Positions 7,178 through 62,858 are shown, counted from the first letter of the stretch. The stretch: 64,000 nucleotides of DNA from an uncultured Pseudomonadota bacterium (GCA_949295395.1 CASFLB010000002.1:423-64422), one strand, 5' to 3'. Program-made: numbers and translations. The notes: a model not told the origin generated them from the letters alone.

Positions 7178-8728
7178 TTACGCTGCTTGTTCTTGGTTAG
7201 CAAATTCCTGAGTAAACTTTTCAAAGAAAGCGGTCAGCTTCTTATCAAGCTCATCAGAAATAACCTTGGTGTTGCGAATTTCTTCCAAAAACTCCGGATA
7301 GTTTGCTTTAACATCAGCCAAAGCCTGAGCTTCAAAAGCTTTAACATCAGCCACAGCTATCGAATCAAGGAAGCCGCGCACACCGGCAAAAATCGAAATG
7401 ACCTGATCTTCCACACTCATCGGATGATAAACCGGCTGTTTCAACAATTCAGTCAAACGCTCACCACGAGCCAAGAGCTGTTTTGTTGCCGGATCCAAAT
7501 CGGAAGCAAACTGAGCAAAGGCCGCCATTTCACGATATTGAGCCAAGTCAAGTTTGATTTTACCGGCCACCTGCTTCATGGCTTTAATCTGAGCGGCAGA
7601 ACCAACACGGCTAACAGAAATACCAACATTAACCGCCGGACGCACACCTTGATAAAACAGCGAGCTCTCCAAAAAGATTTGACCATCCGTAATTGAAATA
7701 ACGTTTGTCGGAATATAGGCCGAAACGTCACCGGCTTGGGTTTCAATAACCGGCAAAGCGGTCAAAGAACCAGCCCCGAGTTCGTCACTCATCTTAGCGG
7801 CACGTTCCAACAAACGAGAGTGCAGATAGAACACATCTCCCGGATAAGCCTCACGCCCTGGCGGACGACGAAGAAGCAAAGACATCTGACGATAAGCCGT
7901 CGCTTGCTTCGATAAGTCATCATAAAAGATGGTTGCATGCATTCCGTTATCGCGGAAATACTCACCCATTGCACAACCTGAATAAGGAGCAATATACTGC
8001 ATCGGTGCCGGATCAGAAGCCGTAGCGGCCACCACAATGGTATAATCCATGGCGCCATAATCTTTCAAGGTTTGAACAACGCGAGCCACGGTTGAGCGTT
8101 TTTGCCCAACGGCAACATAGATGCAATACATTTTATCTTTTTCAGACTTTGCGGCATCATTAATTTTTTTCTGATTAATAATGGTGTCTACGATAATAGA
8201 GGTTTTACCTGTCTGACGGTCACCGATGATTAATTCACGTTGTCCCCTTCCGATAGGAATAAGAGAGTCAACGATTTTCAAACCGGTCTGAACAGGTTCA
8301 TGAACACTACGGCGAGCAACAATACCCGGAGCTTTAATTTCAGAGTTGCTATACTCTTTGGCTTTAATGGCACCTTTGCCGTCTATGGGCTCACCCAAAG
8401 CATCGACCACACGCCCCAAGAGCTCTTTTCCAACCGGAACGCTCACGATTTTATCGGTACGTCTGACCGTATCGCCCTCTTTAATATCCTCATCGGAACC
8501 AAAGATAACAACACCGACATTATCCTCTTCCAAGTTAAGAGCCATACCTTTGACGCCGGATTCAAATTCAACCAATTCATTTGCCTGAACTTTATCCAAA
8601 CCATAGACATGGGCAATTCCGTCACCAACGGACAAAACCTTACCAACCTCAGCCACGTCAAGCGTCACTTTGGCATTAGTGATTCTATCCTTAATGATGG
8701 AAGAAATTTCGCTGGCAACTACAGACAT
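7178..8728 (-). CDS. atpA: F0F1 ATP synthase subunit alpha
   Basis: Walker [10 protein letters not shown]. Full-length alpha-subunit conservation. Confidence 0.95.
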
Positions 8729-9288: not shown

Positions 9289-9465
9289 ACTCTGAATACT
9301 GATTAGGTTAAATCTGCCAAAGACTATAACCTGAAATTATTTCTATTTTATTAAGATTCATAAAATCGAAAATCGAAATTTCAACTCACGCACAAGAAAA
9401 CAATAAGTTTCAATAAAAATCATACAATTAGATTAAAAAGAAAAGAATAAGATTTAACTTTTATA

Positions 9466-11659
9466 TTACATAAAGGAGTAAGGATCAATATCCACCTCAA
9501 CACGCACCCGAGGAGAATGAGGCACGCGCGAAAGCCATGTCCGAATAACTTCTTGGATATTAATAGTTCGCGCGGTTTTGAGCAGCAAGCGAAAACGATA
9601 TTTTCCGCGCAGCATAAAGATTGGCGCCGGAGCCGGACCAAGCGTGGTAATCATATCGGTATTTGGGGCACATTTTCCAAGAGAAACGGCTGTTTTTTCA
9701 ACCATATCCTGATTATCTCCGGAAACAATCAGCGCCGCTAATTTTCCAAAAGGCGGCAACTTAAGCAACCGCCGGCTCTGCTTTTCAAGCTCAATAAAAG
9801 AAGAACGATTGTTGTCTAATAAGGCTTTCAAGACCGCATTTTCAGGATAAAGCGTTTGCAAATAGACCACACCTTTTTTAGCACCGCGACCGGCACGACC
9901 AGAAACCTGAGAAAGCAGCTGATAAGTCCGCTCTGAGGCGCGCAAGTCACTTCCCATCAACCCCAAATCCGCATCAACGATTCCCACCACGGTCAAACTC
10001 GGAAAATTATGCCCTTTGGCTAGAATTTGCGTTCCGATAAGAATGTCAATTTCATGATTTTCCATCTTGCGAATAACTTCCGAAACCTCGGAAAGAGTTG
10101 AGGTAATATCGCTGGACAAGATACCGATTCGCGCCATTGGAAAACGCTTTGAAACTTCTTCAGCAACCCGCTCCACCCCAGGGCCGCAAGCGGTAAGCCC
10201 CTCTTCAGAGCCGCAAGACGGACAACGAGAAGGAATTGATGTTGTATAACCACAATGGTGACAAATCAACGACTTTGTTTTGCGATGCTCGGTCAACCAA
10301 GAAGTACAGTTCGGACATTGGATTCGGTGCCCGCAATCACGACAGATTGTTAAAGGTGCATACCCGCGCCGATTCAAAAAGAGCATAGACTGCCCGCCGA
10401 TTTCAAGATTATCGGCCAAGGCTTTAACCAAAGTCGGTGATAACCATGCCACCGACATTTGCCCTTTATCATTCGGAAATTTTTGCGGCTTATCTTTTTT
10501 AAGATCGATAATTTTTACGGTCGGCAAAACCGCTTCGGCAAAACGAGAGGTCAATTTAACGCTGTCATATTTTCCCGATTCGACATTACAAATTGTTTCC
10601 AAATCCGGCGTCGCGGTCGATAAAATCAGTGGAATTTGCTCCATCTTGGCACGCACGACCGCCATATCGCGCCCTTGATAATTGACCACATCTTCTTGCT
10701 TGAACGACGCATCATGACTTTCATCAATAACAATCAAGCCCAAATCGGCATAAGGCAAAAACAAAGACGAGCGCGCTCCGACCACAACCTTAGCCCGATT
10801 CTCAATAATTCCTTTCCATGTATCGATTCTCTCGCGTGTACCTAAGGCCGAATGCCAGCAAGCCGGCTTAACGCCAAACCGCTTTTCACTTTTCAAAACG
10901 ACCAAGCCATTGCGTGGTTAAAGAGATTTCAGGCACCATGATTAAAACCTGCTTACCTTGCGCCAAGGCATCGGCCACGGCTGCAAAGTAAACCTCGGTC
11001 TTACCCGAACCGGTCACCCCGTCAAGCAAAGTCACCGAAAACCCCTGCCCGACTTTTGAACAAAGCAAATCAGCCGCATCTTGCTGCTCAGATGTCAAAT
11101 TCACTTTTGAAAAATCAGGATTCGGAGTACCAAAATCACGTTTCAGAGCCACCACCTCCGGCACCAACACACCGGCATCAATCATGGTTTTAATCACCAT
11201 TTGCCCAACACCGGCACCTTTGGCAATTTCTGCACGCGTGTAAGGATAATGCCGCAACAAATCCATCACTCTCCAGCGCGCATCAGAGTTTTTAAGCTTC
11301 GCCTCGGCTAAAGTTTTGCCCGAAAGTTTGTAAAGCGTCGTTGTTTTATCATCATCAAACACGGCTTTAACACTCAGCACCATTTTTAGCACCAAGCCCA
11401 AATAAGCCATATTATAGTTTGCCACAAAGGCCACAAACGTCATCAACGCGGCAGACAAAGGCGGCATATCAATTTTTGAGATAATCGGCTTAATTTTAGC
11501 CAGCGGCAAATCCGAATTTTTTCCAAGCTTCCAGACCACACCGACCAAAACTTCACGCCCAAACGACACACGAACCATCTCGCCGAGAGCCACATCGCCC
11601 TCGACTTGATAGTCAAACACATCATTAAACGGCAGCGGAAGCAAAACGCCGACAATCAT
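9466..11659 (-). pseudogene. priA: primosomal protein N' (PriA) split into two overlapping ORFs by a 7-bp tandem duplication
   Basis: ORF 10886..11737 has the PriA N-terminus (LLPLPFNDVFDYQVEGD, Walker A GVTGSGKTEVY) and ends ...QWLGRFEK*. ORF 9466..10905, in another frame, continues KRFGVKPACWHS..., then the Cys4 zinc region CRDCGH..CPNC..CHHCG..CPSCG. Sequence at about 10885-10905 (minus strand) reads cgt ttt GAAAAGTGAAAAG cgg; the intact reading RFEKRFG needs only one TGAAAAG copy. Confidence 0.75.
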
Positions 11660-11772
11660 GAAAAACCTCGCAAAAAAATTTATCAAAGTATAAAACAAAA
11701 GAAGCAAAGAACCAAGCGTAATCTCACTTTTCCGCAAACACTTTTTTAACCAAAACGAGATAGAATAAACTT

Positions 11773-12705
11773 ATGAAACAAGAAATAAAATATAATACCG
11801 ACAATGAGTTAAAAGCCAAGATTGAGAAATGGCTTGAAGAATTGAGCGCGGAGCGCCGCTATTCACCGCACACGATAGATGCCTACGCGCGTGATTTGTC
11901 ATTCTTTACCGAATTTTTCGAAACACCGCTAAACTTAAAAAAACTAAGCCGACTTGATGTCAAAGACTTCAGAGCTTATATCAGCCGTCGTGCCGCCAAA
12001 CATTTAAGCAAAAGCTCTCTAGCGCGAGAAATTTCAACTCTAAGAAGCTTTTTCCGCTGGCTAGATAAAAATGATATTGTTAAAAACACCGCCATAGATG
12101 TGATTAACTCCCCCCGACAAGATAAAATACTTCCGCGTTCCCTAGATGTGTCAGAAGCTTTTGAACTGTTGAATGAATCACCCAACTTTTCTAAAAAAAG
12201 CTGGACGGGCCTCCGCGACCGCGCCATTTTCACATTACTTTACGGCTGCGGCCTACGAATATCAGAGGCCTTGTCCCTAAATTTCGGTGATATTGAACCA
12301 AGCACTCAGCTTTTAAGAATTACCGGTAAAGGCAATAAAACAAGATTAGTTCCGATACTTTCTGAGGTTATTGACACCATCACCGCCTATATCAACGAAT
12401 GTCCTTATAATTTCAAACAAGGAGACGCCCTATTTTTAGGCACACGCGGCGAACGTCTAAGTCCGCGCATCATACAGCGCCAAATGCAAAAGATAAGAGC
12501 TTATCTCGGTTTGCCGGATAATTTAACGCCCCATGCTCTGAGGCATTCCTTTGCCACACATTTACTGGCCGAAGGCACTGACCTGCGCTCCATTCAAGAG
12601 CTTTTGGGCCATGCCTCATTAACCACCACCCAGCGCTATACGGATGTTGAAATTGAAACCTTGCAAAAAGAATATCGCAAAGCACGGCTTCTTGATGATA
12701 AATAA
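11773..12705 (+). CDS. xerC: tyrosine site-specific recombinase XerC/XerD family
   Basis: C-terminal catalytic region HALRHSFATHLL...LLGHASLTTTQRYTDV (R-H-R-Y). 310 aa. Adjacent to priA, as is common in alphaproteobacteria. Confidence 0.8.
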   Translation: MKQEIKYNTDNELKAKIEKWLEELSAERRYSPHTIDAYARDLSFFTEFFETPLNLKKLSRLDVKDFRAYISRRAAKHLSKSSLAREISTLRSFFRWLDKNDIVKNTAIDVINSPRQDKILPRSLDVSEAFELLNESPNFSKKSWTGLRDRAIFTLLYGCGLRISEALSLNFGDIEPSTQLLRITGKGNKTRLVPILSEVIDTITAYINECPYNFKQGDALFLGTRGERLSPRIIQRQMQKIRAYLGLPDNLTPHALRHSFATHLLAEGTDLRSIQELLGHASLTTTQRYTDVEIETLQKEYRKARLLDDK

Positions 12706-30155: not shown

Positions 30156-30878
30156 ATGACGACGACCCAGCTTCCGCTAGAATTTTATCACCGCCCCTAC
30201 ATGAGCAAAGATGACTTCATGCCGGCAGCTTGCAATTTTGAAGCCTATCGACTTATCGATTCGTGGCCGGTTTGGACTTATTTTGCGGCCTGCATTTACG
30301 GTCCGGAAGGCTGTGGCAAAACACATTTGGCCAATATTTTTTCAGAAAAAGTTTCAATTATAGAGCACTATCCCTATAAAATCCCCTGCATTAAAGCACG
30401 AGAATTAACCATAGAAATGCCACGCCAATTGCTAAGTCGCCACTTCTGTCTCATTGTAGAAGATTTAACCGCAAACATTAATCAAGAAGCACTATTTAAC
30501 CTCTACAACATCTACCGAGATGAAGGCGGCTGCATTTTGTTCACCAGCAACGAAGCACCGGCTCGAATAAATTTCAGCCTACCGGATTTGCGTTCGCGAA
30601 TGAATATTGTCCCAAGCATTGAGATTAAAGAACCCGATGATGATTTGTTGTCCGCTTTGTTGGTAAAATTATTTATGGATCGACAAATAACAATAACACC
30701 GGATTTAATAAAATATATTTTAGCCAACATGCAGCGTTCCTTTGCCTATGCCCGAAAATTGGTCGACGAAACAGACCGCGTCTCTCTTGCCAATAAACGT
30801 GCGGTCAGCCTCCCGATAATAAAAGAAGCCATGAATAACCTTGAAGATAAGCGACAAGGAGAGCTCTTTGAGGCTTAA
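30156..30878 (+). CDS. hdaA: DnaA-regulatory inactivator HdaA (DnaA domain III-like AAA+)
   Basis: N-terminal QLPLEF...DDF...N..A and Walker A GPEGCGKTHL. 240 aa. Placed just downstream of the cckA-like gene. Confidence 0.75.
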   Translation: MTTTQLPLEFYHRPYMSKDDFMPAACNFEAYRLIDSWPVWTYFAACIYGPEGCGKTHLANIFSEKVSIIEHYPYKIPCIKARELTIEMPRQLLSRHFCLIVEDLTANINQEALFNLYNIYRDEGGCILFTSNEAPARINFSLPDLRSRMNIVPSIEIKEPDDDLLSALLVKLFMDRQITITPDLIKYILANMQRSFAYARKLVDETDRVSLANKRAVSLPIIKEAMNNLEDKRQGELFEA

Positions 30879-42842: not shown

Positions 42843-44390
42843 TTAAAGCTTTTCCTCATCAGAAGCGTTATCCTCATCAACAAACCAATGTTCACGAGCT
42901 TCCATAATGATTTTGTTGGCCTCGGTTTGTGAAATAACATTTTCCCCAAGCATTTCAATCAGTTCATCAGCGGCCAAATCACCGAGATCATCAAGGGTCT
43001 TAACGCCTTTTTCAGCAAGGGTCAAAATCATATCTTGATCCAAACCGCTAATACCCATAAGCTGATCATCAATACCAAGAGATTTTTTCTTGTTTGCAAA
43101 TTCGGCATCACGCTTAGCAACAAACTCTTTTGCACGATTCTGAAGCTCTTTAGCCACATCATCATCAAAGCCCTCAATTTCAGAAAGCTCAGACAAATCA
43201 ACCAAAGCGATTTCATCAACCGTAGAGAAACCTTCAGCGATTAACAGATGAGCGATCATTTCATCAACATCCAAAGCTTCCATAAAGCGTTGGCGAACTT
43301 TATTTTCATTAGAACGACGTTCTTGCTCTTGTTCTTCGGTCAAGACATCAATATCACAACCCAAAAGCTGAGAAGCGAGCTTAACATTCTGACCACGACG
43401 TCCAATAGCAATAGAGAATTGATCTTGAGCAACAACAGCCTCTATGCGGTTATTTTCTTCATCAAGAACAACTTTTGTAACTTCAGCCGGAGCCAGTGCG
43501 CTAACAATATACTGAGCCTTGTCTTCAGAATAAGGAACAACATCAATTTTTTCGCCCTGAAGTTCATTAACGACAGCCTGAACTCTGATACCGCGCAATC
43601 CGACACAAGCGCCAACGGCATCAACCGTAACATCTTCGGCTTTAACGGCGATTTTAGCTTTAGATCCAGGGTCACGGGCAACACCCATAATTTTAACAAT
43701 TCCATCATAAATTTCAGGAACTTCTTGGGTAAAGAGCTTAGCCATAAATTCAGGGCAAGTACGAGATAAAAAGATTTGCGGACCTTTATTTTCGCGACGA
43801 ACATCTAAAACATACGCACGAATACGGTCACCGTTTTTAAACTTTTCTCTCGGAATAATTTCATCACGACGCAAAATAGCCTCAGTTTTACCAATATCGA
43901 GAACCACATTACCAAACTCAATACGTTTGACTGTACCATTAACAATCGTACCAATTTTTTCTTTATATTCTTCAAACTGTTTGTTGCGTTCAGCTTCACG
44001 AACTTTTTGCACAATAACCTGCTTGGCCGTTTGAGCGGCAATTCGACCAAAATCAATCGGAGGAAGAGCATCGACCAAAAAATCACCGACTTTAGCATCC
44101 GTCTTATAATTTTTAGCCAACTTCAAAGGCAGCTGAGCCGCTTCATTTTCAATAATGGCATCATCAGGCACAACTTCGCGATAACGAGACAAAGCAATAG
44201 CACCGGTCTTACGGTCAATTTTGGCGCGAATATCATGCTCTGCACCATATTTTGAGCGGGCACCTTTCTGAATGGCAACTTCCATTGCCACAAAAACATC
44301 TTCGCGGTCAATATTTTTTTCACGAGCCACAGTATCGGCAACTAAGATAATTTCCGGTCTCGGCATGCTTTCCATATTTTCCATTATCAA
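42843..44390 (-). CDS. nusA: transcription termination/antitermination factor NusA
   Basis: 515 aa. S1 and KH regions (SAIGRRGQNVKLASQL) and C-terminal acidic repeats. Confidence 0.95.
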   Translation of the reverse strand: MIMENMESMPRPEIILVADTVAREKNIDREDVFVAMEVAIQKGARSKYGAEHDIRAKIDRKTGAIALSRYREVVPDDAIIENEAAQLPLKLAKNYKTDAKVGDFLVDALPPIDFGRIAAQTAKQVIVQKVREAERNKQFEEYKEKIGTIVNGTVKRIEFGNVVLDIGKTEAILRRDEIIPREKFKNGDRIRAYVLDVRRENKGPQIFLSRTCPEFMAKLFTQEVPEIYDGIVKIMGVARDPGSKAKIAVKAEDVTVDAVGACVGLRGIRVQAVVNELQGEKIDVVPYSEDKAQYIVSALAPAEVTKVVLDEENNRIEAVVAQDQFSIAIGRRGQNVKLASQLLGCDIDVLTEEQEQERRSNENKVRQRFMEALDVDEMIAHLLIAEGFSTVDEIALVDLSELSEIEGFDDDVAKELQNRAKEFVAKRDAEFANKKKSLGIDDQLMGISGLDQDMILTLAEKGVKTLDDLGDLAADELIEMLGENVISQTEANKIIMEAREHWFVDEDNASDEEKL

Positions 44391-56567: not shown

Positions 56568-59500
56568 TTAATCAAGCGGCATCAAAAAAGCGGTATCTGT
56601 CCATAAAATAAAGCAATGAACACTTTTTTCGGGATAAATTTTTTCAACCAACTGTTTATAAACGGCCAGCTGTTTTTTATAAATCACCGGCACATCGTCA
56701 ATCGTTTTTGCCGCTGGGCGGTTAGTTTTAAAATCAATAATCAAAACCTCATCATCACGCACAACAAGTCGGTCAATTTGCGCCGAAATAATCTTGCCAT
56801 CGACCATACCCATCAGCGGTACTTCCGCTTTTGACCCATCACCAAAAACCTTTTCAAAGTCCGGATTCTGTAACAGATTCAAGACTTCGTGAAGAATAAC
56901 ATCATGTTGATTCTCCGGCAAATCTGAGGCATTTGCACGCAAAAACGCCTTAATAACCGAAGACAAATCCCCCTGTTTGACATCCGGCAAAAATTGAAGA
57001 AGTTTATGAATAACCCGTCCACGGCGAAAACGATGCTCATCTTCCTTAAAAATCGGTGAAATCAAAGCCGATTCGGAAAGCTCATCTTCCTCATCAGGAC
57101 GAGACGGTGTATAAGGCTTAGCCAGCAATTCCTCATCAGGAGCCTTTGAAAAAAGCCACGCCGGAATATCACGACAATCTCCGCCCCCGTCAACAGAATT
57201 CTGTTCCTGTTTCTTTTTTTGGGAAACGAAATCTTGCGATGTTTCAAAAATCAAATTTCCATCAGCATCTTCACAAGCATCAGGCAAAAAATTACGCCGA
57301 CAAATATCGTACCAACAATCTTCTTTAATGGCATTTTTCCCTTTATACCCGCAAAGGCAAAGCCTGTCTTCGGCACGAGTCAAAGCCACATAAAGCAAGC
57401 GGCGATATTCTTCCAAAGCCTTTTGATTCATTTTTTGATTAATCTTAAGGCAAACATCATCATAATCCGCCGACTTTAGAGGAAAGAACATCAGTTCGTC
57501 CCACAACATCGCGGCTTCTTTCTTTTCCGAGGCAACACGTACCATATCGGGCAAAATAACAATAGGCGCTTGTAAACCTTTTGAGCCATGAACCGTCATC
57601 AAACGAACCAGATTTTGAGAAGATTGTTCTTGCTCACGCTTAATTTCCACCTCATCTTGCGTAATCCAATCAATAAAAGATTGCAAACTCGGCACATGAT
57701 CTTGTTCAAAAGCAACGGTCAGATTCATAAATTCATCAATCCCGTCTTCCACCTCAGCCCCCATACGAGCCACAAATTTTTTCCGTCCTGACAATTTGTT
57801 CAGAACAAAAGAATAGAGTTCAAACGGGCGAACATAATCAGCTTTATTCAACAAAAGTTGCAACTCGGCATAAACAGAAGCATATTTTGCATTTTGAGAA
57901 AGCCTTGTCAACAAAGGTGTCATACCGCGTTCCGCACATAACTCGAGCAAATCCATATCATCAAGCCCCCACAGCGGCGACTTCAAAATTTCGGCAAGGG
58001 TCAAATCATCAGTCGGCAACAGCAAAAACTTTCCGATTCCGATTAAATCTTTAATTGCCATCTGCTCCAAGAGTTTAATTTTATCGACACCGGCAACAGC
58101 CACGCCCACTTTTTTACAAGCCCGAACAAATTCCTCAACAAAAGCGTTGCGCCGCTGAACCAAAACCAAAAAATCACCATAAACAACCGGCCTGTTTTTT
58201 GATTTAAGGATATCACCGTTTTCCACCATAGACTTAATTTTAAGAGCAATAGCAGCCGCCAAGCGTGAACTGGTTGAATCAGAGGATGTTTTTTCAACCG
58301 GCGGCAGCCAAACATCAGGATTCTCATTAGGCAAAGGCTCAATCAGGGGCCATAAAACAACTTTTCCGGAATCCCCGACCCGAAACGGAATATGCGTCAT
58401 ATCTTGCTCGGGCAAGACCACGCCTTTTTTAGCTTCTTCATCAGAAAAGACCTTATTCACCGTATCAAGAACAGCCGAGGTTGACCGAAAAGAAACATCA
58501 AGTTTCACCTCTTCAAAATCATCGGCCGCCGCATGAAAATAGCGGCGCATATTTTCAAATTCCTCAGGATCCGCGCCTTGAAAGCTGTAAATAGATTGCT
58601 TGCGATCACCAACGGCAAACACCGTTCGAACAATATCATCAGCTCCGACACCGGCAAAAAACTCTTCGGTCAAAGCTTTAACAATCGCCCATTGGTCAGG
58701 AGACGTATCTTGCGCTTCATCAATCAAAACGCTGTCGATACCGCCGTCAAGCTTATACATCACCCATTGAGCAACAGCCTGATTTTCAAGCAAATGACGT
58801 GTTAAGACAATAAGGTCTTCATAATCCATTTTTGAATGAAGAATTTTATAAGCATTATAGCCCTTAATCAGCTCTTCGGCCAAAAGCAACACAGCTTTGG
58901 TAGAGGTAAACACGCGCAAAGACACCAACTTTCGCTTAAGAGCCAAAACACGTTCAGCTTCGGCTGTAAGCAAGTCATCAATATCAGGCTCAAAAGCACG
59001 TGCACTTTTGGTCGCCAGCCTAGGCATATCATCTTTTTTAAGGAAACAAGCAGCATAATCGTCGAATGAAAGACTTTTGACATCGGTCAAAACACGTTCC
59101 AAAACAGCAGAACGAGCCACATCGGTTGCCGCTCCGTTTTGCAAAGAAGCAATTATCTTTTTAAGCTCCGCAGAAGAAAGAGCTTCAAAAAAATCAGCAA
59201 TTAAATTTTCGGCACAATCATCGGGCTTAAGACCAAACTTTTGAGCCAAAGCCTCCAAAATTGAATCAACGGAATCGTAAGAAACAAGCAATCGAATAAG
59301 TTTATTTCGATTATCGGCAAGAGTTTTAAAAATCTGCGGAAATTTCGATTCGCTGACATGTTCGGTCAAATAAATAAGAGCTTGGGCAACGGCACTATCG
59401 GGAGAATGCTCAATTTTTTGCAACAAATGCGTTTTAACCTCATCAAGAGCTTCCGCCGCCATACGATCATCCATCACCGAAAAATAAGGAGAAACTTGAG

Positions 59501-59951
59501 CCTCAAGCGGAAAGCGTTTCAACACATCCTGACAAAAGCTATGTATCGTCTGAATTTTCATTCCACCGGGAGTATCAAGTAACAAAGCAAAAAGCTGACG
59601 AGCTTTAGCCTCAAGAGCGGCATAATCTTTTTGTTCTTTGGGCAGTATCCCGAGCAAATTATAAAGTTCTTTATGAAGTTTTTCATCGTCAGCCACCGCC
59701 CATTCGCTCAACCGTTTAGCAATACGATCATTCATTTCAACGGCGGCCGCCTTGGTATAAGTCAAACACAAAATTTTAGCCGGATTAACATTATTTAAGA
59801 GCAAACGTAACACTCTATCCGACAACACCTTCGTTTTTCCGGTTCCGGCCGAAGCTTCTACCCAAACCGACTTCAAAGGATTAGCGGCACGGCGCTGTTG
59901 CTGGGTTGCTGTTTCACCGCGTTTGTCACGAATATCGGCACAATCGGTCAT
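56568..59951 (-). CDS. addA: double-strand break repair helicase/nuclease AddA (UvrD-like helicase + C-terminal PD-(D/E)xK nuclease)
   Basis: 1127 aa. N-terminal Walker A ASAGTGKTKVL (UvrD/Rep family). Co-oriented with the AddB-like gene. Confidence 0.85.
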   Translation of the reverse strand: MTDCADIRDKRGETATQQQRRAANPLKSVWVEASAGTGKTKVLSDRVLRLLLNNVNPAKILCLTYTKAAAVEMNDRIAKRLSEWAVADDEKLHKELYNLLGILPKEQKDYAALEAKARQLFALLLDTPGGMKIQTIHSFCQDVLKRFPLEAQVSPYFSVMDDRMAAEALDEVKTHLLQKIEHSPDSAVAQALIYLTEHVSESKFPQIFKTLADNRNKLIRLLVSYDSVDSILEALAQKFGLKPDDCAENLIADFFEALSSAELKKIIASLQNGAATDVARSAVLERVLTDVKSLSFDDYAACFLKKDDMPRLATKSARAFEPDIDDLLTAEAERVLALKRKLVSLRVFTSTKAVLLLAEELIKGYNAYKILHSKMDYEDLIVLTRHLLENQAVAQWVMYKLDGGIDSVLIDEAQDTSPDQWAIVKALTEEFFAGVGADDIVRTVFAVGDRKQSIYSFQGADPEEFENMRRYFHAAADDFEEVKLDVSFRSTSAVLDTVNKVFSDEEAKKGVVLPEQDMTHIPFRVGDSGKVVLWPLIEPLPNENPDVWLPPVEKTSSDSTSSRLAAAIALKIKSMVENGDILKSKNRPVVYGDFLVLVQRRNAFVEEFVRACKKVGVAVAGVDKIKLLEQMAIKDLIGIGKFLLLPTDDLTLAEILKSPLWGLDDMDLLELCAERGMTPLLTRLSQNAKYASVYAELQLLLNKADYVRPFELYSFVLNKLSGRKKFVARMGAEVEDGIDEFMNLTVAFEQDHVPSLQSFIDWITQDEVEIKREQEQSSQNLVRLMTVHGSKGLQAPIVILPDMVRVASEKKEAAMLWDELMFFPLKSADYDDVCLKINQKMNQKALEEYRRLLYVALTRAEDRLCLCGYKGKNAIKEDCWYDICRRNFLPDACEDADGNLIFETSQDFVSQKKKQEQNSVDGGGDCRDIPAWLFSKAPDEELLAKPYTPSRPDEEDELSESALISPIFKEDEHRFRRGRVIHKLLQFLPDVKQGDLSSVIKAFLRANASDLPENQHDVILHEVLNLLQNPDFEKVFGDGSKAEVPLMGMVDGKIISAQIDRLVVRDDEVLIIDFKTNRPAAKTIDDVPVIYKKQLAVYKQLVEKIYPEKSVHCFILWTDTAFLMPLD

Positions 59952-59966
59952 AAGCTATCTCCTTCA

Positions 59967-62858
59967 TCACTCATCGTCATTATCCCCCAAGACCTTCCAC
60001 TCGGCCACACGAGCAAGATTAAGATAATCTGAATATCGAGGAGCATAGGCCGGATTCGGCTGACAATAATAAGGCGTATTTGGATCATCAAAGGTTGAGA
60101 TTAATTCAACCAAACGCTCTTGAGTTTTTTGCAGCACATCATCAACATTTTTATCAAAAAAAGTTTCTTTTTTACCAAGTTGCCAATAAATAAGGGCGGC
60201 AACTTTTTTAGAAGCAAGATCACGAAAACCGCCTTTTGAGGCAATCAATCCTTCAATCGGAAGCTGGGGCGCATAGCCTTTCACGATTTCATTAGAGCTA
60301 CGAGCACTTCCGGTTTTATAATCAAGAACATTAACCTCTCCCTCAAGTGTTTCATCAACACGATCGGCTTTCGCGGTAACTTCAAAATCACCGGCCGCAG
60401 CTTTCAAAACAACCGAACCGGAAAGCTCAAAATGAACACGCGCGATATGTTGACGATACGCGGCTTCGGTTGCCGCCAACCATTTAACGCTTTTAACAAA
60501 ATTCGGCCACCAAAACGCACGTTTTTCCAAAGCAACTTGGTTCTCGGTAAAATAATCGTCACCGAGTTTAAGCAAAATTTCTTCAGCTTGTTCGGGATAA
60601 ACCGTCGGATAGCGACGATTAAACACTTCAAGCACTTTATGAACCAGCGTTCCGTAATCTCTGAAATCGAGTTCGCGATTAAGGTCGTTAAGAGGACGAA
60701 GTTTAAGAATATAACGAGCAAAAATCTGATACGGATCGCGCATAAGAATTTCAATAGAACTTGCCGAAAACTTTCGCGGACGATAACAAAGAGGGGGTTT
60801 TGGCTCCGGCGGATTAATCGGAAAGAACCCTTCGGGTTTATCAAGTTCCGCCCCCCAAAAAGCATAGTTTGGAGCATAAAGATGTTTAAACTCATAGCCC
60901 AAAGCACTCAAGACGGTTTGCAACCGCAACCACCAACGAGAATAAGACATCGGCGTCGATTGAACCTTAGCGGCACGTGTTAAAATCACGTGCTTTCCGC
61001 ACAAAAAATCAGCAAAATCTTTGGCCAAAATACCGACAGCTTTTTCGGGCAACGGCAAACCAAAATTCTTTTTCATAGGGCGCGACATCCATGGGTCGGC
61101 ATCAGAAGACTTCGGCCATGCTCCTTCATTAACTTCACCGATAATCAAGCGGTCAAAATGGCAAAGACGAGCCTCAATCGGCCCAAGAATTTTCAACCGC
61201 GGATGAGTTCCGTAGCGCGGCCGCACGGTAACACCGACCATAAGCGATTCGAGCAAATCAAGATATTCACCGCCGTTCAGTAAATCCAGCTCATCAGCCT
61301 CGTCATAAAGAGAAGAGAAGAACGCCGCGGCGGATTCGCCGTCATCACCGCGCCATAAAACGGCAGCACCGCTTTTATCAGGAACAGACGCCAGCTTTTC
61401 AGCCGCCAAAATATGAGCTTCAAGCAATTCTTTAAGACTTGTGGAGCGAGTCAATAAATCGCACAAGGGTTTAAGCTGTTGTTTTAAGGCATCAAAAACG
61501 CGCAAAATATCGGGATTATCGGACGGTTCATCAGCACGCAAAACCAGTTTTTCAAAATCACGCACCTGTCGCCGAACCAAAGAATAATCTTCTCCGTTTG
61601 CAAAGAACGGATGTTTCATCAAAGCCAACAGCGGCACCGGAGCAAAATCGTCCAAACAAGCCTGAAGAATAAGCCGTAAAAAAGCACCGACAGGCGAAAG
61701 AGAAAGCGGTTTACCGGCCGAATCATCAACCTTAATATCCCACCGCTCCAACTCTGCGGCAACCCGACGCGCCAAATTTCGATCGGTCGTCACAAGGGCG
61801 GCTGTCTTTTCGGGCGTTTCCAAAACTTCTCTCATCAGCAAAGAAACAGCAACCGCCTCTTGACGCAAATCGGAACAATCAAGAACGGACAACCCCTGCA
61901 CGGCCTGCGGCATAATTTTTTCGCTTGCCAACCAGCGCCATTTATCAGTTGAAGAAGCCGGCCGCATAAGTTCGGAAACAAGTTTTTCGCGCGCCGAATT
62001 AAAAGACGAACAAAAATCCACCACCTCAAAACGGTCAACACCGATAAAATCCAAAAGTTGCTTGAGTTCAAATTGCGGATGAGATTCATCAAGCTTATCA
62101 TAACTATGAGCATCAAGATATTTATCAACGCCGTAAAGAATAACCTCCCCTTTTGGCAAATCCAAAACCGTTTTCACCAAGCGCCGCATCATCGGATAAG
62201 TCGCGGTTGTGCCGGCCACAACGATTCGCTTTGAGGGCGGATGCTTCTGCCAAAAGCGGCATTGCAAATCAAGCAAAATATTGCGCCGTTCCGCCGGATC
62301 AACCCAATGATGTTCTTTTAAGTAATCCGGCCATTGCTTTGTCACGATTTCCAAAAAACGTAACGTATCAAGCCAATGCTGGGCATATTCTTCGGGAACA
62401 AGATTTTTCAGATTATCAAAAGAAAGCTGTTCATGATGCACATCATCAATCAGCTTGCACAAAGATTGAGCCAAAGAACAGGCCTGTTGCGCCGAAAACT
62501 GCTCCAGCCCGAACTGCGGCGCATCATGCTTGATTTTTTTTGTAAACCACAACAAGCGGCGGAGCGACGGCACGGCAGGCGGCAAATTTTTAAGTTCTTC
62601 GGAAAAATCAAAACCGGAAACAAACAGCTCATCTTCTTCAACATCGCCCAGCGGCATCATCTGCGGCAAGAGCGTCGGTTTAAGACCTTGCGCACGTACA
62701 AACGCCTCTTTTAAGTTTTGACAAGCACGTCGATTCGGCAACAGAAACAACACCTCGGAAAGCCCGAGGGGACAATCAGAATATTCATCTAAAAACTTCT
62801 GCGCCACCGCGTCAACAAACGCCACGCTGGAAGGAACATTAAAAACCTTTCTCATCAT
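59967..62858 (-). CDS. addB: double-strand break repair protein AddB
   Basis: 963 aa. Upstream partner of addA, in alphaproteobacterial AddAB order. Confidence 0.8.
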   Translation of the reverse strand: MMRKVFNVPSSVAFVDAVAQKFLDEYSDCPLGLSEVLFLLPNRRACQNLKEAFVRAQGLKPTLLPQMMPLGDVEEDELFVSGFDFSEELKNLPPAVPSLRRLLWFTKKIKHDAPQFGLEQFSAQQACSLAQSLCKLIDDVHHEQLSFDNLKNLVPEEYAQHWLDTLRFLEIVTKQWPDYLKEHHWVDPAERRNILLDLQCRFWQKHPPSKRIVVAGTTATYPMMRRLVKTVLDLPKGEVILYGVDKYLDAHSYDKLDESHPQFELKQLLDFIGVDRFEVVDFCSSFNSAREKLVSELMRPASSTDKWRWLASEKIMPQAVQGLSVLDCSDLRQEAVAVSLLMREVLETPEKTAALVTTDRNLARRVAAELERWDIKVDDSAGKPLSLSPVGAFLRLILQACLDDFAPVPLLALMKHPFFANGEDYSLVRRQVRDFEKLVLRADEPSDNPDILRVFDALKQQLKPLCDLLTRSTSLKELLEAHILAAEKLASVPDKSGAAVLWRGDDGESAAAFFSSLYDEADELDLLNGGEYLDLLESLMVGVTVRPRYGTHPRLKILGPIEARLCHFDRLIIGEVNEGAWPKSSDADPWMSRPMKKNFGLPLPEKAVGILAKDFADFLCGKHVILTRAAKVQSTPMSYSRWWLRLQTVLSALGYEFKHLYAPNYAFWGAELDKPEGFFPINPPEPKPPLCYRPRKFSASSIEILMRDPYQIFARYILKLRPLNDLNRELDFRDYGTLVHKVLEVFNRRYPTVYPEQAEEILLKLGDDYFTENQVALEKRAFWWPNFVKSVKWLAATEAAYRQHIARVHFELSGSVVLKAAAGDFEVTAKADRVDETLEGEVNVLDYKTGSARSSNEIVKGYAPQLPIEGLIASKGGFRDLASKKVAALIYWQLGKKETFFDKNVDDVLQKTQERLVELISTFDDPNTPYYCQPNPAYAPRYSDYLNLARVAEWKVLGDNDDE

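Follow-up and report, generated by a model that had tools for sequence, protein, structure and literature searches.

Among the replication-restart proteins, PriA is the only one conserved across all bacterial phyla, with PriB and PriC confined to the proteobacteria and a few other Gram-negative groups (PMC5778457). E. coli and N. gonorrhoeae survive the loss of priA, although the null mutants are very sick, and no PriA-independent restart pathway has been reported outside suppressor mutants (PMC5778457). The same review reports that E. coli PriA retains almost full function as two segments, both present, when the split is placed at residues 154/157 in the flexible linker of the winged-helix domain, and that the ATPase-dead E. 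coli variant K230R still supports restart in vivo (PMC5778457). Caulobacter has a PriA homologue, for which cooperation with the loader DciA is no more than a proposal (PMC9825169). A search for Tn-seq literature on priA essentiality in alphaproteobacteria returned enterobacterial studies only.

The locus described here belongs to an uncultured gut alphaproteobacterium and lies in a 64,000-nt stretch of DNA (the window). It carries, on the minus strand, a gene for PriA (primosomal protein N′) that is interrupted by a 7-bp tandem duplication (Table 1).

Table 1. Coordinates of the features of the interrupted priA gene, counted from the first nucleotide of the window
Feature	Position	Strand	Basis or remark
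Tandem TGAAAAG x2 (+ strand CTTTTCA CTTTTCA)	10882..10895	-	+1 shift of the priA frame
Premature TGA stop resulting from the duplication, following codon 257 (K)	10886..10888	-	sequence
priA N-terminal fragment, 257 codons from ATG 11659	10889..11659	-	NCBIfam NF004070 profile positions 12-266
Ribosome-binding site GAGG, 6 nt ahead of the priA ATG	11666..11669	-	sequence
priA C-terminal part, +1 frame	9466..10887	-	NF004070 profile positions 266-729; tblastn
Two window-private substitutions preceding the duplication by ~90 nt: TAT>TAC (synonymous), GAA>GCA (E226A)	10983..10988	-	
Mosaic tract in 3′ priA, ~0.5 kb, codons ~537-707	9532..10042	-	sister-species-like (L001/L002)

The two reading frames of priA

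The first-pass annotation of the window had reported a priA gene interrupted by a 7-bp tandem duplication within 10880–10910, and the two copies were indeed located there. The minus strand reads ...CGTTT-TGAAAAG-TGAAAAG-CGG, in the wider context ...CAATGGCTTGGTCGTTT TGAAAAG TGAAAAG CGGTTTGGCGTTAAGCC, and the codons at the break run, 5′ to 3′, ...CAA TGG CTT GGT CGT TTT GAA AAG TGA AAA GCG G.... The N-terminal ORF therefore ends in ...QWLGRFEK, as had been stated, with the TGA at 10888–10886. Its product (P0121) is present in the protein collection, where it comes from a single contig. The start was placed at ATG 11659, all relatives beginning with MIVGV; TTG 11737, which the ORF tool lists, is unlikely to be the true start. 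Downstream of the break, PriA homology picks up in the +1 frame at E256-K257-R258 and extends from 10887 (EKRFGVKPACWHS...) to the stop at 9466; in tblastn, residues 256–728 mapped to 10887..9469 with 100% identity. The C-terminal ORF as called by the tool starts at TTG 10905 and reads MVVLKSEKRFGVKP..., which agrees with the earlier description of an ORF beginning at 10905 in a different frame.

Deletion of one heptamer copy yields a 2187-nt ORF whose sole stop is the terminal one and which encodes a 728-aa PriA. The earlier claim that this repair restores collinearity with E. coli PriA held against the 88%-identical Klebsiella structure 4NL4, and the repaired protein is collinear with both solved PriA structures, 4NL4 (Klebsiella) and 6DGD (E. 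coli), at E=1.9e-128. It scored 969.7 bits on NF004070, the PriA equivalog profile (curated cut-off 921 bits), covering positions 13–729 of 729, and 630 bits on TIGR00595 (cut-off 230.35 bits). The pieces that are actually encoded scored 225.8 (N-terminal) and 726.9 bits (C-terminal) on NF004070, both below the cut-off; since their matches span profile positions 12–266 and 266–729, the two pieces abut exactly. The SF2 helicase motifs and the two-zinc cysteine-rich region are all present. The N-terminal fragment contains the 3′-end-binding domain, the winged-helix domain, Walker A (GSGKT, 217–221), and motif Ia (PEISLT, 243–248), while the C-terminal part contains DESH (310–313), the four CxxC zinc motifs (437–480), motif VI (QVSGRAGR, 582–589), and the C-terminal domain. 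A second copy of priA was sought in the window and none was found.

A perfect 7+7 tandem by itself is not unusual in this sequence, as seven were observed in the window against 5.7 +/- 2.3 in Markov-1 simulations. This one gains its meaning from the comparison: the frame breaks precisely where it lies, and conspecifics and relatives lack the second copy. A further perfect tandem repeat with a 7-bp unit (AAAATCG x 2.4) is located at 9362–9378 in the priA-atpH intergenic region, approximately 90 nt downstream of the priA stop, and no length difference from the conspecific contigs was seen there.

Occurrence of the duplication in conspecific and related assemblies

Eighty loci were recovered by a scan of species-representative genomes, each of them from a metagenome-assembled genome of an uncultured gut or rumen alphaproteobacterium. 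The three closest (L001–L003) share only ~91% DNA identity with the window and are therefore assigned to sister species; L002 corresponds to the window sequence minus exactly one heptamer copy. More distant loci read straight through ...RFE(K/R)RFGV... in 78 of 80 cases, and the remaining two were simply missed by the search motif. The protein collection supplied six distinct intact 728-aa PriA alleles that differ from the repaired window protein by 3–5 residues. The most direct comparison came from nine conspecific contigs of nine other samples (L082–L090; 98.1–99.5% DNA identity to the window): relative to all nine, the window carries a 7-nt TGAAAAG insertion, and while the PriA frame of the window is broken by the TGA after codon 257 with the remainder in +1, every one of the nine encodes an intact, continuous 728-aa PriA. 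A tenth, short conspecific contig (L081; 1,056 nt, 98.96% identity) also has one copy of the heptamer, in the form TGAA.AG. The lesion is thus private to one assembly among the 11 same-species assemblies examined.

Searches for a second source of the allele gave the same picture. Exact look-up of the two split products, in eight start-codon variants, returned one contig only, which has 64,476 nt and is presumably the one from which the window derives, and the products are listed from NCBI/ENA but not from the independent Logan re-assemblies; because they occur on this single contig and in NCBI/ENA only, the duplication lacks independent confirmation. An allele-aware scan of JGI metagenomes found no occurrence of the duplication. 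A looser scan for the junction in the same metagenomes gave one match (L099), which was rejected as an independent duplication, as it is an unrelated AT-rich contig with the motif between ORFs unlike PriA, that is, a chance match.

Two questions raised by the first-pass annotation can be answered from these comparisons. The same lesion is not fixed in other isolates, being absent from the ten other same-species assemblies, and priA of close relatives is intact in 9/9 conspecific contigs and uninterrupted at the site in 78/80 distant loci. The proposal that this organism has lost PriA function or relies on a split protein was not borne out, since nine same-species contigs encode the intact 728-aa protein, and, judged from the aligned genes, the lesion is not a loss at the level of the lineage, as the species and its relatives keep an intact gene.

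Some of the other assemblies of the species have peculiarities of their own. L081 (ENA ERZ16268298 scaffold_114615) contains two in-frame stops, AAG>TAG at the break codon (L081:973) and AAA>TAA 24 codons further on (L081:1042), which were considered as a second, independent inactivation and rejected. The last 84 nt of this contig show five differences, all of them transversions, while the first 968 nt show six, five of which are transitions; because all five terminal differences are transversions, the stops probably reflect a poor contig end. In L086 (ENA ERZ16268056 scaffold_774), the ORF calls merge atpA and atpG into a single ORF of 816 aa (L086:12925-15375); compared with its neighbours, the locus is short of 30 nt where the two genes meet, which is either a deletion or an assembly error. 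L087 (Logan SRR23823965) has an extra 298-aa ORF without Pfam match between priA and atpH (L087:3525-4421), which is absent from the window and from the other eight conspecific contigs.

Private substitutions, mosaic tract, and state of the region

Around priA, the window is 100% identical to L082, a strain with intact priA, in most 300-nt bins, and since its flanks are identical to this strain over kilobases, the lesion must be young. The first 1,600 nt of the gene contain only two window-private substitutions, the pair listed in Table 1, one of which changes a residue (E226) that is invariant in all 88 related sequences from the motif search. Together with the duplication, these substitutions (10988 and 10983) make three private changes within ~100 nt, compared with a background of ~1 per kb. 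The gene as a whole has 32 window-private sites, 28 synonymous and four non-synonymous, and 30 of the 32 carry the sister-species base. The mosaic tract near the 3′-end of the gene is 98.5–99.5% identical to L001/L002 versus 89–94% to the nine conspecific contigs; in nt 1601–1800 of priA, the corresponding values are 99.0–99.5% to L002/L001 and 89% to the conspecifics. It is either an inter-species recombination tract or the product of a strain-chimeric assembly. Other alleles of the protein cluster, for example P0133, look mosaic in the opposite direction.

The junction of the duplication shows no microhomology (T before the unit versus the unit-final G; the unit-initial T versus C after the second copy), which gives simple slippage no particular advantage as the mechanism. 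Three substitutions (10904, 10983, and 10988) that are private against the five long conspecific contigs cluster nearby, the nearest at a distance of 9 nt from the duplication, although 10904 is not private against all nine. From this spacing, it is conceivable that the duplication originated together with a short patch of recombination or repair.

The contig's window-private substitutions beyond the mosaic tract comprise 17 synonymous and six non-synonymous changes. This bias points to biological variation rather than base-calling noise, and thus to a contig that is accurate at the base level. The comparison with conspecifics covered ~47 kb of the window (1–21.7, 27.7–32.9, and 42.7–62.9 kb), and no further frame-breaking coding indel was found in it. 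The remaining indels in the first 21.7 kb are 1–2-nt length changes in A, T or C between called genes, and those in the 42.7–62.9 kb part are an in-frame 3-nt difference at 43293 and, against one contig only, two 1-nt indels at 44166 and 44170 that compensate each other (+/-1). The window is densely packed with long ORFs and its genes for ATP synthase, xerC, lon, hslVU, nusA, addA, and addB are intact; there is no indication of pervasive pseudogene formation or of a noisy assembly in the region. The reductive evolution invoked by the first-pass annotation finds no counterpart in these data, which show a private lesion, no decay, and no other frame-breaking coding indel in the ~47 kb compared.

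A few further details of the region may be recorded. The 3-nt (AGA) deletion at 43293 lies in nusA and was seen against both conspecific contigs L095 and L097, as a harmless length polymorphism. Four window-private substitutions, all synonymous, fall within 13 nt of atpA (7436–7448); three of the four match neither the conspecifics nor the sister species, and the cluster looks like a very short imported patch. A similar but loose patch with three window-private substitutions is found in xerC (12302–12591). Other replication and recombination genes (56568–62858 and 30156–30878) are intact, namely addA (1127 aa, UvrD-helicase and PD-(D/E)XK), addB (963 aa), and a gene for an Hda-like protein of 240 aa, and form the background in which the priA lesion would act if it is real.

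Readings of the allele and comparison with described PriA systems

The position of the break in the protein was examined on the AlphaFold model of P0001, a 98%-identical homologue of the same length (mean pLDDT 73.7). In this model, helicase lobe 1 has the usual beta-alpha-beta RecA-like core, composed of strand 208–214, helix 220–233, strand 237–241, helix 245–259, strand 264–266, helix 272–283, strand 289–292, and strand 304–311. Residue 257, after which the frame breaks, sits in the last turn of helix 245–259, between strands 237–241 and 264–266 (block pLDDT 87), that is, between motif Ia and the DExH box within the predicted folded core of lobe 1. Two strands, together with Walker A and motif Ia, fall on the N-terminal piece, and the other three, together with DESH, on the C-terminal one. 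Neither piece alone would have a complete ATPase site or sheet. The only candidate starts of the C-terminal piece are TTG 10905 and TTG 10896, both without a Shine-Dalgarno motif, while such a motif is present at the true priA start and at several neighbouring genes.

We consider the lesion to be best explained, with a probability of roughly 0.6, as a private, very recent frameshift allele that arose by real tandem duplication of 7 bp in an otherwise intact priA kept by selection. If the duplication is taken as a real mutation in the sampled population, PriA would end at residue 257. The first polypeptide would then carry Walker A and motif Ia, and the DExH box, zinc-binding region, lobe 2, and C-terminal domain would be encoded separately, in the +1 frame, by an ORF whose only start codons are TTG and which lacks a ribosome-binding site. 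The 257-aa fragment with the 3′-end-binding and winged-helix domains would presumably be made, with little or no C-terminal piece. Judged from the predicted fold and the missing ribosome-binding site, the allele as written is most likely null or severely crippled.

That the duplication is a real mutation is itself somewhat favoured, and the reading set against it is that the organism has a single TGAAAAG and an intact priA, the extra seven bases having come from joining, scaffolding, polishing or strain-mixed reads. The lesion occurs in one contig among 11 same-species assemblies, and its split products are not listed from the Logan re-assemblies. The priA gene turns into a mosaic of conspecific and sister-species sequence 0.8 kb downstream, as would be expected from co-assembly of two related populations, and the private changes at 10988, 10983, and the duplication are clustered; however, patchy divergence is equally a product of recombination. 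Local errors are evident in other assemblies of the species (the end of L081 and the atpA-atpG fusion of L086). A null allele of priA is expected to be under strong counter-selection (PMC5778457), and as the majority allele of a near-universal, fitness-critical gene it is a priori unlikely in a population abundant enough to yield a 64-kb contig. Against an artefact speak the otherwise clean contig, with no other coding frameshift in the ~47 kb compared, and the 17:6 synonymous bias of its private substitutions. De Bruijn-graph assemblers output only k-mers present in the reads, and a 7-bp duplication is neither a typical product of such graphs nor a typical short-read error. The first-pass remark that the duplication is not a typical homopolymer sequencing error is fair in this respect, but it leaves room for an assembly or joining artefact, which we regard as a rather unlikely origin that still deserves serious consideration.

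The other readings accept the duplication and differ in what becomes of PriA. Both fragments could be made, the second by termination-reinitiation at TTG 10896 or 10905, and reassemble into a working restart protein. The E. coli split at 154/157, reported as "almost fully-functional" with both segments (PMC5778457), makes a two-piece PriA formally possible, and the restart activity of ATPase-dead K230R (PMC5778457), the two in-frame TTG codons just upstream of the stop (overlap of 9–18 nt), and the intact motifs of both pieces are in line with it. The cut in the window, however, lies not in a flexible inter-domain linker but inside a confidently predicted helix (245–259) of the lobe 1 core, where it parts strands 1–2 from strands 3–5 of one sheet; the TTG starts lack a Shine-Dalgarno motif, and since no relative has a split gene, there is no suggestion that the arrangement is selected. 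A functional two-piece protein is thus very improbable. Still less can be said for lineage-level loss of PriA within reductive genome evolution, which we hold to be barely credible: the interruption itself and the private E226A at a clade-invariant residue would fit it, but nine conspecific genes are fully intact, and these contigs and 78/80 distant loci are uninterrupted at the site. The lesion is neither shared nor one of several, the motifs are intact with 28/32 private priA sites synonymous, and neither other broken genes (in ~47 kb) nor low coding density were seen nearby, the recombination genes addA and addB among others being intact. Lastly, a ribosome that skips one base at AAG-UGA would produce full-length PriA plus two residues. 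Recoding of prfB likewise involves a +1 shift with the stop codon in the A site, which is the shift needed here; but tRNA-Lys (AAG) cannot re-pair on AGU by codon-anticodon rules, no SD-like stimulator is present upstream, and the site exists in no relative and so is not a conserved recoding signal. The probability of such programmed +1 frameshifting is close to nil.

As it stands, the finding matters little, because a lone private frameshift in a metagenome-assembled contig is commonplace among draft genomes, and no loss of replication restart in the lineage should be read into it. A check for priB, dnaT, and priC, as the first-pass annotation proposed, is poorly applicable, since PriB and PriC are limited to a few groups and PriA alone is conserved across bacterial phyla (PMC5778457). 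Some caution is due in annotation, as pipelines will give priA here as two ORFs or as a pseudogene, though the species keeps the gene. If the duplication were real and dominant, the population would amount to a naturally occurring test of how a bacterium lives without PriA when it also lacks the PriB/PriC/DnaT/DnaC back-up of E. coli, and, as the majority allele, the duplication would imply either a PriA-independent restart route or a functional PriA made of two pieces divided within the core of RecA lobe 1. That the duplication is both real and the majority allele of a thriving gut population, that is, that a DciA-type alphaproteobacterium lives without intact PriA, appears improbable.

Among the described systems, the priA-null mutants of E. 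coli (e.g. priA2::kan) and N. gonorrhoeae resemble the window allele in that the same single replication-restart helicase is inactivated (PMC5778457). They are, however, engineered insertions in hosts with PriB (in E. coli also PriC, DnaT, and DnaC) in which dnaC suppressors are known, whereas the window allele is a 7-bp duplication of natural origin, and its host an uncultured alphaproteobacterium. The two-segment PriA of E. coli (insertion at 154, new start at 157) shares with the window the arrangement of two polypeptides encoded by adjacent ORFs; that protein is split in a flexible linker, has a proper new start codon, and works (PMC5778457), while in the window the split passes through the predicted core of RecA lobe 1 and the starts are TTG codons without a Shine-Dalgarno motif. 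The "pseudohelicase" PriA of Deinococcus radiodurans is a natural PriA that is reported to have lost helicase activity and is nevertheless retained (cited in PMC5778457 and PMC9825169), but it is a continuous polypeptide conserved in its lineage, in contrast to the truncated allele private to one assembly. The closest match is found in the ordinary strain-private frameshift pseudogenes and errors of draft and metagenome-assembled genomes, which show the same single short indel in a conserved gene with no further decay. No difference from this known category was established, and the window lesion belongs with such ordinary strain-private frameshifts or assembly errors.
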